Source: Glaucostegus cemiculus
Lineage: Eukaryota
Reading direction: 5' to 3'
Length of the DNA: 64,000 nucleotides
Assembly (NCBI GenBank): GCA_976551045.1
Contig: CDPCPM010000060.1
Coordinates: 10,664,001-10,728,000 of the forward strand
A model generated the notes under the pieces. It ran no database searches. It saw nothing but the letters and a program-made list of their open reading frames with translations, and was not told the origin of the DNA. A program made the translations under genes and the position numbers. Each line of letters starts with the position of its first letter. Positions within the stretch are counted from its first letter, which is position 1. This document shows, one piece after another, positions 1 through 58,160 of this stretch.

Positions 1-30
1 CTGGGAAAGTAGAACATGCTTAGTTTTAAT
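1..30 (-). other. Minus-strand 3' splice acceptor ending at window base 1; possibly the acceptor of the RAG2 coding exon lying just outside the window
   Basis: Reverse complement reads ...AAACTAAGCATGTTCTACTTTCCCAG: branch-like CTAAG, pyrimidine tract and terminal AG. The RAG2 assignment is inferred only from the known NWC/RAG2 arrangement. Confidence 0.35.
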
Positions 31-993
31 TATCTTTAAGTTTCCTCCCTCACAGAACTTTTTGAATCATAGATGACTCTGTTCATGTTTTTTTTTTACT
101 AATATTGTCCTGAATTGGAAATTTTTTATCAACTTTGCTCAATTTGTGCCTTTTTGTCATGTTCACATGATTCAGTTCCATCTCGTTTCTTCCCTTCCTC
201 AAGTTCTCTATCTGAAGATAGTTGATTAGTATGTACACTTTCCTGTAGCTACAAGGGCGGTAGTTGCTCTTGATCTGCTACTTGAAAGCTCTCTATTTCA
301 TTTTTTTTAGGTTTTCCTTCTCTAATGCATGTATTCTGATGACATAATTTTCCATGCTCTCTATATGATTTCCTTATCCCTCAGCTGAGGATTCCATTCA
401 ACATGATGGGCAGGATCCCCACTTACGTCAATTATAATTTCCTATATTTCTGTTTTCACTGCTTCTTCTCCTACCTAGAGCCATTATATAGTTTCACATC
501 CTTTGCAGATGGCTTCACTTTCAACAGATTACTATTTAACAACACTGCCATCTCCAGCAAAACACTACCTTCTTCTTAGATTGTCCCTTAGGACTGAGGG
601 TGATTTATTTCCACTCCGAATTTATGGTTCTGAGGTGGTTAATGAGGCCAATTTTGGAACTGCAGACTCATTCACAGATGGGACAAGTGGCGGTTGATGG
701 TGTAGATAGGTGGCTATGCTCTGTAATCCTATTTAAACATTTCATCTCTCCTACCTTCCCCATCACGGGCCTTTCCTTTTGTTCCTTCCACCCTCCTCTT
801 CATTTTTCTCACCTTCATTAGTTGCTTAAAGCTGATGCCATTTATATCTTTTTTCTAGTTATTACAAATATCAATTTGAAATGTTAATTTTGTTTCTCCC
901 TTCATTCGTGGAAAATCATGACCTGGTGATCATTTCCAGTTTCTTCTATTCTTGTTTTTATTTTCAACTTCACTTTCCTGTTACTCCTTTTAC

Positions 994-1095
994 AGATACT
1001 GCAGGTACTGGAATTTGGAAATCTGAAAAGGTAGACAATACTGGAAATACTCGGTAAACCAGATGACATTTCTGGAAAGCGTTTTTGGTCGACTT
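994..1095 (+). repeat. Degenerate short Penelope-associated terminal repeat
   Basis: ACTGCAGGTACTGGAATTTGG...ATACTGGAAATACTC resembles the ACTGCAGATGCTGGAATCTGG repeat at 23788 and, inverted, at 27365. Confidence 0.45.
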
Positions 1096-1285
1096 CCAGG
1101 GCTTTCTGTTCTAATTTTTCATTTAGTCTCTATAGAGTATTTTAACAAATAGTTTTGGATACAAATAATGTCACATGGACTCAAACTGACACCTCAGGTT
1201 TCCTTCTCTTCCATACATTTGCTTCTGGAACTCAGCCTGACGGTGTATTTTTCTTGGCGGACCCATTTCCAACGAAAGGAAGGAC

Positions 1286-1311
1286 CACGATACCTGATGG
1301 GACTTGCAGTT
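1286..1311 (-). promoter_or_regulatory. ZNF143/Staf binding site (ACTACA-extended type), inverted copy
   Basis: Minus strand reads AACTGCAAGTCCCATCAGGTATCGTG versus consensus ACTACAnnTCCCAnnATGCnnnGCG. Confidence 0.6.
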
Positions 1312-1340
1312 TATTGCTGCGTTGCTTCAGTGGGGAGCAG

Positions 1341-1365
1341 ACTACATCTCCCAGCGGGCACTGCG
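1341..1365 (+). promoter_or_regulatory. ZNF143/Staf binding site (ACTACA-extended type)
   Basis: ACTACATCTCCCAGCGGGCACTGCG is a near-consensus ACTACAnnTCCCAnnnnGCnnnGCG. Confidence 0.8.
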
Positions 1366-1369
1366 CCAC

Positions 1370-1426
1370 GACTTGGCGTTGCCAGGGCCACAGGGGCAGG
1401 GAAGGGACGCCGTGATTGTCGGACGA
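1370..1426 (+). other. IFTAP: Putative non-coding first exon of IFTAP (5' end approximate)
   Basis: Donor CGA|GTGAGT at 1426/1427 just downstream of the promoter motifs; no ATG in the exon. Confidence 0.6.
1378..1391. promoter_or_regulatory. RFX X-box-like motif
   Basis: GTTGCCAGGGCCAC versus X-box GTTGCCATGGCAAC, near the presumed TSS of a ciliary (IFT-A associated) gene. Confidence 0.5.
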
Positions 1427-4400
1427 GTGAGTAAAACCTGGTTAAAGTGGCGGCTCTGAAATTGGTCAGCACTGTTTAAGCAGTTTTGAATGCTTAAAAT
1501 TGACCGTTTGATTCACTCGAGGAACGCAGTGTAGTTTGGTTGATTTTCTGACGAGGACCCGCTTCTCGCCAGGGTTGAGCGACCTGTGGCCTGTGATGCT
1601 GCCGACCTCGCGTCTCCTCGTCCACCCCAACCCATGCACACTGACCCACAGCGTGTATGGGTGGCACTCTGCTAGTTTAACCAGTGGCACTGTGCCCTGG
1701 AGAGGGGAGGGTGAAGTGTGATTACAACCAAACGCTCTACTGTTCATATATTTGCAAAAAAAACCCCGACGGATTCCTTAATATTTTGAAAGTGCTTATG
1801 GTAATGGAAAAATCAATGACAGAAGTACAATAAGAGGATTTTGACAGCTTTTTAAAGATGAATATTACCTAAAAACAATGCTTGTTTATTTACTTTTTTT
1901 TAAAGAAAAGGATTGTTAGAAAACCTGAAGTGCTAGAAGATTTTAGTTGAATAGATGTACTTGCATATTTGTATGTAGAAGTCAATTATGAGAAGTCTGC
2001 AGGAGTTTTAATGATATTGGCAATACGGCTTTTCTGTGTAATTCTTTTTATTAGGCCTCTGTCTTGGTTCAGCTGTGCATGCTCCTTTCTGAATCAGGGT
2101 TGTGAGTTCAAGTACCTCTCCTGACACTTGAGCATGTGGTCTGGGCTGGAACCTCAGTGTTGCTCTCAGTTTTAATATTTGAATTTGTAGGATCCAACTA
2201 GCTGAATCAGTTATATGTTCCACTTTCAGCTGTTACTGACCTCTGAGCAATGTTGTTTACTTACTGCTTATAAATCCTTCAGTAATTTGAAGTTGGGACA
2301 GAAAGTATTGGAAGTTAATGTTTTTCATTTAGTATTTACATTTATCCAATAGTTGTTTAGTGCATTAGAAGCAAAAGCATTCAATGTTGCCCTCTCAATA
2401 TTGGCACTTGATTTATGTGATATTAAAATAGTTGTAACCTTAAATCAAATGTGAATACTTAAGCAGAGTTATATCACAATGCACAAGCATATTGTTAATT
2501 TTAGTTTCACAGTTAACCTTATGCTGTTAAAGCAGAATTTACAAAGTTCTTTTTACATGATTCTTGTGTTCAATGAAGTTGATATGCAGTGCCTTTTAAA
2601 GTAATTCTATTCAGTGACACCTGATATCTTATTATGCCAAACTGATACTTGCTCTGGAGTCAACAATGAGAAATTACTGCAGCATAAAGATATTATTTTT
2701 ATTTTAAATTCAGTTGTTGGTATTTTGTCCTGTGGTTTTGGATGGGGCCTTTAGTCCTAATTGTATCTATTTGTTACTTTTTTAACATCTATACTTGAAC
2801 AAAGTAACACTATATTGATAATCAAAGAAATATTGAAATTGGTTTTGCCATTTTTATGGTTATTGATAAATGAGGCAAATTTAGTATCATTTTCACCCAG
2901 TTAAATTGTAATGCTTATTTTTGATGTGAAATAGAATTTGACACTAACATTTAATCTTAACATTATTTATGCTTAGAATAGTTTTTACTTAAATTTATAT
3001 CTAATTTGGTTTCTACTTACAGACAGTTAGGCTACTTTTTCTAAGAAATCTTTCAGGGTTTTTGTTTTTTCCTTACAGAAAATCAACTGCTAGTTAGTCA
3101 ACTGTGGTTGTGATATAAACCAATGTAAGTTTTAGGCACTACTTCTTTATTCTTGCTAGATGTCTTTGTTTTGCCTTGATTTAGATGCAGTTTGATGTTC
3201 AAGTTGCCCATTAGCCCTATGTATCCTGTTTGTTTGACCATTCTTTGTATAATTGATGTGTACAAAATTAAGAGAGGGTTTGGCAGGGTGAGGAGCAGGT
3301 CAATTTCTTTGCACAGGTGGGTTCAGCCAGGGAAAAGTAATTGGGCAAAGGATTAGAAATGAATTGAAGGAAGATTTTTCCATCAAAAGAATCATGATGA
3401 CAAAAACTTTAATTACATTAAAAAAATATACCTGGAAGAAGACCTCCAGGTACATTTAAAAATATATATACCTGCAGCCACAACAAGTAAGATTACAGAC
3501 TGAACTGGAAGCTGAGATTGAAGTAATTAACCTATTTTGGCTGGCCTGGACATATTGAGCCCATTTCTGATTTGTTAATTTCTATGTTTCAATGAACAAT
3601 GACTGCATTGCCCAAGTAATACTCCAGATGTAAATAACTTCTGGACTTCATAAAAGGAATGTGAAAAGCCCTGCCGAAATGCAATTAGTTATTTTCTTTA
3701 ACCTTTTGTCTGTTTCATCTTTACTTTTTTTCAAGTTTTACTTATTTCAAATTACCTTCTGCTTTCTATCAATAAGATGACAATTGGGAATTACAGACTT
3801 TCATTCTGCACTTTCTTACAATAAAGCTACCATTGGTCCATTTGCACTTTATTATTATAACCTATTATATTTTTAACATGTAGACCTTCATTGCCTTTAG
3901 ATGTAGATATACTGAATACTTACTGCTGCTATGATGCTCAGCTTTAATTACCTGCAAAATAAATTGCTTCTCCGCAACACATGATAATTATTTGAATTGT
4001 CTAATTTTCTTTTCAGTTTATAGCTTTGCAGACGTACAATATAATGTTGGCAATGTCATTTAACCTTAAAATTAACAGATATAATTAATTACTATTTTTC
4101 TATATTGTAGTCAGTTAACCTTAAAGAGACTGGCTGTTATTTAAATTACTTGGTGTCACTTAGCACCTTTTGTAAACCTCAAACGGTTGTAACAAATAAG
4201 TCAACAAGAATTAGGTTCCTTGAAAATATTTGGTCTGCATTAAGTACTGTAAGTCTATTTTACATACAAGACAGCTGTTACTTAGAACGATCACTGTGAC
4301 AATAGTGTATGCTTGCCTTTAATATGAGCATAATACTGAAATAATCTTACCTGTACAGTGCAAAGAGTTGAAGAGACTGGAATTGCTTGCAGAATTCAAA

Positions 4401-17340: not shown

Positions 17341-17632
17341 ATCCAGTTGGATGTAAATTTTGGAGGAGCAGTATGTTCTTCTGCAAGAATAGCATCAAAA
17401 AGGGACCAACTAATCATTCATTGAATTTGCAGTTTGTGAGACCTTATTGTATCTAAATTGACTCTATATTTGCTCAATAAAAGTGACTGGAATATAGTCA
17501 TAATGTATTCATTCTTGCCTCATGTTAGGTTTACTTAAAATATCTTTTTGTTTATTTTTATATGAAATTGTTGTGTGTTATATCTTGTACTACACTTTCT
17601 TTTTATTTCAGAATAATGCACAAGATGTACTG

Positions 17633-17756
17633 ATGTTTATGATCCTGACAACAATGGAGAAGGAAGGAATAACCTGTGATGCTCTGGAAAAGTTTTGCAG
17701 GAGTCATGAACAAACGTATGAGGAATTTCTGGAATCATTTATGCACCTTGGAAGAG
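17633..17756 (+). CDS. IFTAP: IFTAP/NWC (C11orf74) first coding exon; exon starts at 17612, start ATG at 17633 or 17654
   Basis: MFMILTTMEKEGITCDALEKFCRSHEQTYEEFLESFMHLGR matches the recalled IFTAP N-terminus (..LDKF.NCHEQTY.EFL.TF.HL). Acceptor TTTCAG at 17611, donor AG|GTAAGC, phase 1. Confidence 0.92.
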
Positions 17757-18041: not shown

Positions 18042-18178
18042 AGGACATGAAGAAACAAAATGCAGCACCTCCTGACATTGCGGAGGTATCAGAAGATGCT
18101 GGAAAATACCTAGAAATGAAGGATGTACTGACATACTCTCTTGAGAAGGGAGGACAGTCACTTAAGGATAATGAAGAG
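18042..18178 (+). CDS. IFTAP: IFTAP coding exon 2
   Basis: Acceptor TTTCCAG; a phase-1 join gives EDMKKQNAAPP...KDNEE. Ends at a GC donor GAG|GCAAGT (phase 0), compatible with the next exon. Confidence 0.8.
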
Positions 18179-18289
18179 GCAAGTTTTGAGCCAGAGATGC
18201 AGTCCGTAGGAGTTATCTCAACTTATCATGTTATATCGCTACTGATTTCTATCAAATATTTTCTGCAGAGGCAGTTCATTGGCGTATAG

Positions 18290-21460: not shown

Positions 21461-22430
21461 CAGAATCAGAATCAGAATCAGTTTTATTGTCACAACCACA
21501 TACATACAAAGTATGCAGAGGAGCGATATACCGTCCTCCTCAGGTGCTCGTCCCATACAAAAATAACATAACAACCAACAGAGAGACACATACACACTTG
21601 GCAGAATGCATAGTACAGATCATTACACCTTAAAAGCTAAGGGGATTGAACTTAAATTCAGGATCAATTTATCGATTTTCACTTACACGTATACATGTGC
21701 AAAAGACATCAAAGACAATAAAGGACACCGGGACAAAAACATCAAAACATTAACAGCCCCCCTGCCTCACCCCGCACCGACGACCACCTCCAACCCCCGC
21801 AGTCCTACAACCTCAGGGCCCACAGACCATCAACAACCTCCGGCCACAGTCCGACAGTCCGACCACCTCCGGCCCCGCAGGCCGACAACCCCCGGCTCCT
21901 TCGCCTCCGACTCCGCAGTCCGGCGGCCTCCGGCCCCGAATTCCGGCCCCGCAGTCCGGCGGCCTCCGGCCCCGAATTCCGGCCCCGCAGTCCGGCGGCC
22001 TCCGGCCCCGAATTCCGGCCCCGCAGTCCGGCGGCCTCCGGCCCCGAATTCCGGCCCCGCAGTCCGACGGCCTCCGGCCCCGAATTCCGGCCCCGCAGTC
22101 CGACGGCCTCCGGCCCCGAATTCCGGCCCCGCAGTCCGACGGCCTCGAGCCCCGCAGGCCGACCACCTCCGGCCCGAGCAGCCCCCTCACTGCCCGCATC
22201 CCGATGCCACCACGAGGCTCCCGGGCCTTCAAGACGCTGCCGCCTCTGATGAGCTCCGACGAGCCGTCGGAGCCGACAGTACCGACAACGACTCCATAAA
22301 ACGGCACACAAACATCAAGAACAAAGAACACACAAGAAAAAAACACAGAAAAACACTAGAAGACTAACAAAAAAAGACAAGGACTACAGACCTGGGAGAG
22401 GCCGCTGCAACCAGGTGCACCGCCATCTTC
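21461..22430 (-). mobile_element. Young non-autonomous retroelement (LINE-derived 5' end plus (GATTCT)n tail)
   Basis: Minus strand begins GAAGATGGCGGTGCACCTGG and ends ACAATAAAACTGATTCTGATTCTGATTCTG. Its 3' ~130 bp matches 52780-52920. CpGs are intact. Confidence 0.75.
21913..22146. repeat. GC-rich 36-bp minisatellite, 6.5 copies
   Basis: Unit CCGCAGTCCGRCGGCCTCCGGCCCCGAATTCCGGCC, head-to-tail with no spacers. Confidence 0.97.
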
Positions 22431-28991: not shown

Positions 28992-29058
28992 GTAGAGAAT
29001 TGTATTGACATTGAAGACACAGACAGTGGCAAAGGGAGTGAACAGCAAAGTAGCACTG
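28992..29058 (+). CDS. IFTAP: IFTAP coding exon 3
   Basis: TTTAAG|GTA...; VENCIDIEDTDSGKGSEQQSST matches the IFTAP VDNFLDLEDLD motif. 67 bp, donor CTG|GTAGGT, phase 1. Confidence 0.85.
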
Positions 29059-34798: not shown

Positions 34799-34932
34799 GA
34801 GGAGAAGTACTCCCAGGTAAAATAGAAGAGGAGATTCCTGCAAATTATTCTCATTGTGAATATAAATACACAACCCTTGACTTCAAACTGTATCCATGTG
34901 TTGAAGAGTTTAATAACAAAGCACATGACCAG
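34799..34932 (+). CDS. IFTAP: IFTAP coding exon 4
   Basis: CTAG|GA phase-1 join gives GGEVLPGKIEEEIPANYSHC...KAHDQ (IFTAP LPGEVE motif); donor CAG|GTACGC, phase 0. Confidence 0.82.
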
Positions 34933-36276: not shown

Positions 36277-36450
36277 GTATTGACAGATGAAGTCCAGCCT
36301 TTCACATTGGATGAAGAATTTGATTATAACTGTGTTCATTTCAAACCCAAGTATACCGAGGCTGAACTTAAAACTCTTTCTGCCTTGTCACAACAGCGAA
36401 GAGAAAGTGGAGAATATAATGCAGCAAAATTGAATGATTCTGTCTTGTAA
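36277..36450 (+). CDS. IFTAP: IFTAP last coding exon
   Basis: TTTCATTAG|GTA; VLTDEVQPFTLDEEFDYNCVHFKPKYTEAELKTL...NDSVL* contains the hallmark DEVQ.F.LDEEFDY motif. Total spliced CDS is 636 nt in frame. Confidence 0.93.
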   Translation, partial: VLTDEVQPFTLDEEFDYNCVHFKPKYTEAELKTLSALSQQRRESGEYNAAKLNDSVL

Positions 36451-56019: not shown

Positions 56020-58160
56020 TAAGAACATAAGACATAGCAACATAATTAGACCATTCGGCCCTTTGAGTCTGCTCCGCCATTTGATCATGGCTGATTTATT
56101 TTTCCCTCTCAACACCATTTTCCTGCCTTCTCCCTGTAACCTTTGACGCCCTTACCAATCTAGAACCTATCAACCTTTGCTTTAAATATACCCAATGACT
56201 TGGCCTTCACAGCCATCTGTGGCAATGAATTCCACAGATTCCCCATTCTCTGGCGAAAGAAATTCCTCCTCATCCCTGACCTAAAGGGACATCCTTCTAT
56301 TGTGAGGCTGTGCCCTCTGGTCCGAGACTCTCCCACGACTGGAAATGTCCTCTCCATGTTCACTCTATTCAGGCCTTTGAATATTCGGTAGGTTTCAATG
56401 AGGTCCCCTCTCATCCTTCTAAACTTCAGCAAGTACAGGCCCAGAACCATCAAACACTCCTCACACATTAATCCTTTCATTCCCGTGATCATTCTTGTAA
56501 ACCTCCTCTGGACCATCTCCAATGCCAGCACATCCTTCCTTACAAATGGGGCCCAAAACTGCTCACAATACTCCAAATGTGGTCTGACCAATGCCTTATA
56601 AAGCCTCAGCATTATATCCTTGCTTTTATATTCTAGTCCTCTTGAAAGGAATGCTAACATTGCATTTGCCTTTCTTACTACCGACTCAACCTGCAAGTTA
56701 ACCTTTAGGGAATCCTGCACTAGGACTCCCAAGTCCCTTTGCATCTCAGATTTATGAATTCGCTCCTCATTTAGAAAATATTCTATGCCTTTATTCCTTC
56801 TACCAAAGTGCATGACTGTACACTTCCCTATGCTGTATTCCATCTGCCACTTCTTTGCCCATTCTCCCAACCTGTCCAAGTCCTTCTGCAGACTCCCTGC
56901 TTCCTCAACACTGCCTGACCCTCCACCTATCTTTGTATCATTTGCAAACTTGGCTGCAAAGCCCTCAATTCTGTTATACAGATAATTAACATATAATGTG
57001 AAAAGTAGCTCACCCAACACTGACCCCTGCAGAACATCACTAGTCACCAGCAGAACACCAGAAAAGGCCCTCTTTATTTCCACTCTTTGCCTTCTGCCAG
57101 TTAGCCAATCTTCTATCCATGTGAGTACGTTTCCTGTAATAGAATGGGCTCCTGTCTTGTTTAGCAGCATCATGTGCCTTGTCAAAGGCCTTCTGAAAAT
57201 CCAAGTAAACAACATCCACTGACTCTCCTTTGTTTACCCTCCCTTTTACTTCCTCAAAGAATTCCAACAGATTTGTCAGGCAAGATCTCCCCTTAAGGAA
57301 ACCATGCTGACTTCAGCCTATTTTATCATGAGCTTCCAAGTACCCTGAAACTCATCCTCAATAATGGACTCTAACATCTTACCAACCACTGAAGTCAGGC
57401 TAACTGGCCTATAATTTCCTGTCTTTTGCCCCCATCCCTTCTTAAAGAGTGGAGTGACATTTGCAATTCCCCAGTCTTCTGGAACCATTCCTGACTCTAG
57501 TGATTCTTGAAAGATGACTTGTAATGCCTACACAGTCTCTTCAGCTACCTCTTTCAGAACTCTGGGGTATAGTCCATTGGTTCAGGTGACTTATTTATCT
57601 TCAGACTTTTCAGTTTCCCAAGCACCTTTTCCTTAGTAATTGCAACTACACTCACTTCTGCCCCCCCGACTCTCTCAAATTTCTGGCATGTTGCTGGTGT
57701 CTTCCACAGTGAAGTTCCACTACTTCAGTTTGTTCGCCAGTTCTTTGTTCCCCATTCCTACCTCTCCAGTGTCACTTTCCAGCGGTCCGATGTCCACACT
57801 TGCCTCTCTCTTACTCTTTATACGTATATCTGAAAAAAACTTTTGGTATCCTCTTTTATATAATTGACTAGCTTGCCTTCATATTTCATCTTTTCTCCCC
57901 AATTACGTTTTTACTTGCCTTCTGTTGGTTTTTAAAAGCTTCCCAGTCCTCTAGCTTCCCATTAATTTTTGCAATACTGTATGCCCTCTCTGTTGCTTTT
58001 ATGCTGCCTTTGACTTCCCTGGTGAGCCACAGTTGCCTCATCCTCCCTTTAGAATGCTCCTTCTTCTTTGGGATGAACTGATCCTGCGCCTTCCAAATTC
58101 CTCCCAGAAACTCCTGCCATTGCTGCTCTACCGTCATCCCTGCTAGGGTCCCCTTCCATC
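56020..58160 (-). mobile_element. CR1 LINE, 5'-truncated, best-preserved copy; 351-aa RT ORF remnant at 56160-57215
   Basis: QGSVLG, KFANDTKIGG (catalytic ADD mutated), YKALVRPHLEYCEQFWAP, RRMRGDLIETY; (AGAACATA)n tail. Confidence 0.95.

Follow-up and report, generated by a model that had tools for sequence, protein, structure and literature searches.

Does a cartilaginous fish carry the two-way promoter that in the mouse serves both NWC (IFTAP/C11orf74) and RAG2, and would it fire towards both genes? This question is raised by a pair of ZNF143-type sites near the left end of a 64-kb stretch of DNA from the ray Glaucostegus cemiculus, called the window here. In the account of Laszkiewicz et al. 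(2012, PMC3439442), the mouse promoter lies in the RAG2 intron and is strongest in testis; its inverted pair of sites is bound by ZFP143, is required for transcription either way and, in testis, drives the production of RAG2 RNA. The RAG2-side site is required for both directions, and the other site mainly for NWC (PMC3439442). The same pair has been published for human, mouse, dog, Xenopus and the coelacanth Latimeria, together with the proposal that the promoter aided the survival or domestication of the RAG transposon (PMC3439442), an idea repeated in 2014 (PMC4157847) and carried in the title of Sniezewski et al. (2018, Dev Comp Immunol 81:105, PMID 29175053). A preliminary description of the ray DNA had pointed out its likeness to the mammalian NWC promoter; this likeness is real, but it belongs to a pattern that was already in print, the RAG-domestication idea included (PMC3439442).

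The divergent sites and their CpG island

Two ZNF143/Staf-type strings occupy exactly the positions at which they had been described, 1341-1365 on the plus strand and 1311-1286 on the minus strand. They point outward with 29 nt between them, in agreement with the divergent spacing of about 30 bp given in that description. Scoring was done by consensus string, with no position-weight matrix, using RRACTACANNTCCCR-N5-C-N3-GCG with 17 specified bases. This consensus has one N more, before the final GCG, than the form printed in PMC3439442, and the extra N agrees with the SBS2 probe printed in PMC3627581. The right, IFTAP-side site follows the consensus throughout, and the left, RAG2-side site departs from it once in ACTACA and twice in the 3′ half, leaving 12 of 13 bases in its 5′ half (Table 1). 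No other position in the 64 kb matches at three mismatches or fewer; shuffled windows scanned with the same consensus give a mean of 0.19 matches, and one in 100 reaches two. With the consensus exactly as printed in PMC3439442, the plus-strand site has three mismatches and the minus-strand site is absent from the six matches that the 64 kb contain at up to four mismatches. Searched with only the 5′ half, which has 13 specified bases in the printed form, the window returns the same two sites, at zero and one mismatch. A pattern for the pair, built after viewing the window, matches once in the window and in none of 100 shuffles.

The right site also fits ACTACAN plus the 18-bp core (25 nt in total) fully. 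Each site shares 18 of 25 bases with the SBS2 probe as printed in PMC3627581. Right and left sites have 16 of 25 bases in common, which is too few for the repeat finder to report an inverted repeat at this position. The motif pair is real, and its left site is the weaker.

ACTACAN followed by a TCCCA-type core in CpG-island promoters is the generic ZNF143/Staf SBS2 motif, described at thousands of promoters (PMC3082894, PMC3627581), and the ray sites share both the motif and the CpG-island setting with it. The right site has no exact match in the metagenome contigs scanned, and the divergent-pair pattern occurs in these contigs at 11 loci. None of the 11 has a tblastn match to nine IFTAP proteins, and 13 open reading frames from five of them belong to no Pfam family. 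Divergent ZNF143-type pairs, judged by their strings, are not peculiar to the NWC locus. Three of these loci (L001, L008 and L009) are near-identical, and in L001 and L008 the pair overlaps a frame exceeding 1,200 codons; two others, L002 and L007, resemble animal promoter DNA, and the spacer of L007 holds a GC box.

Within the window, the island that surrounds the ray sites is the CpG-richest stretch except for a GC tandem repeat at 21.6-22.3 kb, and no TATA box was matched in 1200-1700. The surroundings of the first coding exon of IFTAP (15.5-18.5 kb) have no CpG-rich stretch, their observed/expected CpG ratio being 0.08-0.37. A bacterial promoter scan, which is not relevant to ray DNA, gave no hit. 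The ray locus thus resembles the mouse NWC promoter in lying upstream of IFTAP, in being a TATA-less CpG island, in its two inverted ZNF143 sites and in a likely non-coding exon 1.

Table 1. Features at the putative promoter and along IFTAP, in window coordinates (a point marks features given without strand).
Feature	Position	Strand	Detail
Path of a predicted leftward transcript, without RAG2 coding sequence	1-1285	-	Pfam and ORF scan
Dispersed-repeat remnants, between promoter and left window end	876-1098	.	Matches elsewhere in the window, E 1.7e-6 and 3.4e-5
CpG island	1250-1720	.	GC 55% (0.554); CpG o/e 0.70 vs 0.21 window-wide
Left (RAG2-side) ZNF143 SBS2-type site, degenerate	1286-1312	-	14/17 specified bases, TCCC core intact
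Spacer, 26 nt	1313-1338	.	Measured between consensus-site ends; core-to-core 47 nt
Right (IFTAP-side) ZNF143 SBS2-type site	1339-1365	+	17/17 specified bases, 0 mismatches
Likely non-coding IFTAP exon 1	1375-1426	+	Start projected from mouse; end set by donor GTGAGT at 1427
IFTAP first coding exon, first ATG 17633	17612-17756	+	Pfam PF17722, E 4.9e-11
IFTAP coding exon, followed by GC donor	18042-18178	+	tblastn alignment
IFTAP coding exon	28992-29058	+	tblastn alignment
IFTAP coding exon	34799-34932	+	tblastn alignment
IFTAP last coding exon, with stop	36277-36450	+	Pfam PF17722, E 1.3e-15

IFTAP on one side, a predicted RAG2 on the other

The five IFTAP coding exons join in frame with a sole stop at the end, and the gene is intact. 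Its last exon is 96% identical to IFTAP of Pristis pectinata, the best match, and all nine homologs of this exon are elasmobranch IFTAP proteins. The second coding exon is followed by a GC donor (18178-18184), so that a GC-AG intron is likely. Between the third and fourth coding exons, 34184-34261 matches residues 109-134 of the Mobula IFTAP isoform P0002 (54%, E 0.001) and is possibly an alternative IFTAP exon.

Upstream of these exons, the donor at 1427 is the only strong one found on the plus strand in 1340-1900. It is joined to 17612 in an IFTAP-like model of Pristis at NCBI (XP_051885637.1, hereafter P0001), which is a gene model and not an RNA, and whose 5′ part maps to 1149-1426. The start of exon 1 is a projection from the mouse and falls 10 nt 3′ of the right site. 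The IFTAP side of the promoter that had been claimed here is supported by the CpG island, by the intact IFTAP gene on the plus strand and by an outside model that splices from the island.

The RAG2 reading frame is about 520 codons long, and the longest stop-to-stop frame in the 64 kb, a reverse transcriptase piece, has 357 aa. RAG reading frames are described as lying within single exons (PMC3439442). A six-frame Pfam scan of 1-1502 detected no RAG2 family. In the three plus frames of 17.8-36.1 kb, the same scan did not pick up the three middle exons of IFTAP, which tblastn had located; it can thus miss short, variable exons, but a long RAG2 exon should score. By these searches RAG2 was not found in the 64-kb window, including the 1,285 nt that precede the sites. 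The mouse locus is arranged differently, its NWC start site and RAG2 coding exon being 313 nt apart (PMC3439442); in the ray, any corresponding exon would be separated from the projected plus-strand start by more than 1,374 nt, and so would not lie within 1.37 kb of it. The relatives' contigs X1 and X8, introduced below, extend only about 660 nt to the left of 1110 and show no RAG2.

On the minus strand, 1-27 forms an acceptor-like pyrimidine run with a CAG that ends at the first base of the window. This AG ties for the best score among the 120 AGs in 1-1300. It may mark where the RAG2 coding exon is spliced, a weak, post hoc lead that we consider unlikely to hold. Another acceptor-like AG, at 1023 on the minus strand, was rejected as a RAG2 acceptor: it is located inside a repeat and no long open reading frame follows it.

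Conservation, spacing and the Ikaros core

Relatives were obtained from a sequencing-run search with 1100-2000, which returned 10 rows from three organisms and four studies, each with 0.06 of the words and none recorded as RNA. Contigs X1 and X3, from organism A, and X8, from organism C, were aligned; X7 gave no cover. Since X1 and X3 come from one organism and carry identical differences, they amount to one comparison, with no neutral control. In organism A, the 54 site positions show no listed substitution and no indel, where the list holds 21 of 22 substitutions and all 14 gap letters over 1110-1513. The probability of observing no change in the sites is 0.045 over 1110-1513 and 0.025 over 1110-1742 for this one comparison, and it rises to 0.12 should the single unlisted letter be a site position. 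In organism A, the longest stretch of 1110-1513 without a change measures 42 nt (1271-1312) and contains the left site; the donor at 1427 is likewise without listed change. In organism C, none of the 30 listed substitutions falls in a site, with 17 of 47 substitutions and 20 of 39 gap letters unlisted. The comparison with organism A lends modest support to conservation of the sites. The residues of P0001 are also identical across both of them, a comparison that was not counted as independent because this model may stem from the same species as organism A or C.

The spacer, in contrast, carries three substitutions and three indels in 26 nt in organism A. Organisms A and C both have 12 extra letters here, which form a GGGCGG box and widen the gap to 37-38 nt; P0001 has four extra residues at the same position. 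In the mouse, the sites span -10/-37 and -74/-100, with a gap of 36 nt (Laszkiewicz et al. 2014, PMC4157847), and the distance published between the sites of the NWC promoter is about 40-50 bp. The ray gap of 26 nt is shorter than that of the mouse by 10 nt, about one helical turn, whereas the gap in organisms A and C is close to it, and the ray's spacer lacks the GC box of these relatives. Agreement of the relatives with the mouse suggests that the ray lineage lost about one turn of the helix. Such a loss would leave both sites on the same helix faces.

A further difference concerns Ikaros. In mouse and human, its TGGGAA motif overlaps both ZNF143 sites and Ikaros represses the promoter in lymphocytes (PMC4157847); an Ikaros-blind mutant of the mouse promoter is reported with normal activity and no repression. 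Neither strand of 1200-1700 in the ray contains TGGGAA. In place of this Ikaros-switched mammalian form, the ray cores read TGGGAC and TGGGAG, at 1298-1303 on the plus strand and 1348-1353 on the minus strand, and organism A has no listed change in them.

A probable IFTAP promoter, possibly shared with RAG2, and the alternatives

We consider it probable that the pair represents the ZNF143 sites of the ray IFTAP (NWC) promoter, orthologous to that of the mouse, and that this promoter would be strong towards IFTAP and weak leftward, in the direction of a RAG2 gene predicted beyond the window. By analogy with the mouse, ZNF143 would bind both sites. Projection of the mouse start sites would place the main start near 1375 on the plus strand, with weaker initiation near 1243 on the minus strand. 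An exon 1 of about 50 nt, non-coding as in the mouse, would be spliced over a 16.2-kb intron to the first coding exon. Leftward RNA would have to cross the repeat remnants and extend for more than 1.2 kb before entering the RAG2 coding exon, which is the least certain step; firing towards RAG2 we only infer. The opposite orientation of the sites, which the preliminary description had linked to a bidirectional architecture, is not the cause of bidirectionality, since one ZNF143 site suffices for two-way activity in a reporter (PMC3082894) and both directions in the mouse depend on the RAG2-side site (PMC3439442).

The orthologous IFTAP promoter could instead be effectively one-way, its leftward starts yielding short, unstable RNA that stops before RAG2 owing to the distance and the repeats. 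We regard this reading as possible, though rather unlikely. It would fit the 1,285 nt without RAG2, the repeat remnants in between and the degenerate left site. According to PMC3082894, about 10% of unidirectional promoters have ZNF143 sites too, and transcription that initiates divergently often fails to elongate; in mouse testis, NWC RNA stands 9-fold above RAG2 RNA, and RAG2 protein was undetected (PMC3439442). However, organism A shows no listed change in the left site, and the position of this site in the 42-nt change-free run suggests, together with that, that it is used. The acceptor-like AG at the first base of the window could start a leftward exon, a weak and after-the-fact argument against a one-way promoter.

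That the right site alone works for ZNF143, with the left one decaying or read by THAP11, ZNF76 or RBPJ sharing the ACTACANNTCCCA half, seems improbable to us. The left site keeps nearly all of its 5′ half and has both of its remaining mismatches in the 3′ ZNF143 half, as such a reading would have it, and THAP11, RBPJ and ZNF76 are reported to bind overlapping motifs (PMC3627581); yet the two sites agree equally well with the printed SBS2 probe, and the 3′ half of the left site has no listed change in organism A. Least credible of all is that the pair arose by chance, or that the stretch is conserved as the longer IFTAP N terminus drawn in P0001. Two matches to the 5′-half pattern are reached in 14 of 100 window shuffles, but in shuffles of the island (1200-1800) one such match occurs in 22 of 5000 and matches on both strands in none of 5000. 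Residues 1-96 of P0001 do read through both sites. In the window, however, ATA replaces the ATG of this model and its frame is broken into three, and none of the other eight elasmobranch IFTAP proteins aligns to 1149-1426. The 96-codon N terminus is therefore likely an annotation artefact, and coding constraint as the cause of site conservation was rejected on account of the frameshifts, which largely refute this alternative.

If the pair is indeed the ray IFTAP promoter, its phylogenetic position is of interest. The 2018 study of Sniezewski and colleagues reportedly tested human, Xenopus and Latimeria. As presented in PMC3439442 and PMC4157847, the case for an ancient bidirectional promoter at the site of RAG insertion draws on bony vertebrates. 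With an example from cartilaginous fish, the arrangement of paired ZNF143 sites would date back to the last ancestor shared by all living jawed vertebrates, which lies near the point of RAG domestication; the extension is useful but expected. Among the literature matches listed, which are mostly outside subscription papers, none deals with an NWC promoter of cartilaginous fish, and such a case may already be in print, for instance in the vertebrate locus figure of PMC4157847. A promoter with no Ikaros core and a shorter spacer without GC box offers natural variants for dating lymphocyte-specific silencing and for testing these features.

A more far-reaching idea, to which we assign a low probability, is that the germ cells of cartilaginous fish would obtain their RAG2 RNA from this promoter, which, without the mammalian Ikaros sites, would preserve the RAG-locus switch in an older form. 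If so, the promoter would account for one of the two halves of the recombinase that gave rise to the germline-joined immunoglobulin genes of sharks and rays (PMC2193156). The idea requires that leftward RNA reaches RAG2 and is translated, and that RAG1 is present in the same cells.

Some further features of the window lie apart from the promoter. The tandem repeat at 21600-22300, rich in GC and CpG and built of a 36-nt unit, is located inside an IFTAP intron; at a guess, it is the 5′ part of a retroelement. The 357-aa open frame at 56160-57233 on the minus strand contains a reverse transcriptase domain (PF00078, E 5.2e-7) and is a piece of a LINE. Also on the minus strand, 626-688 gives a weak C2H2 zinc-finger match below the cut-off (E 0.049), presumably resembling the end of an RTE-type LINE.
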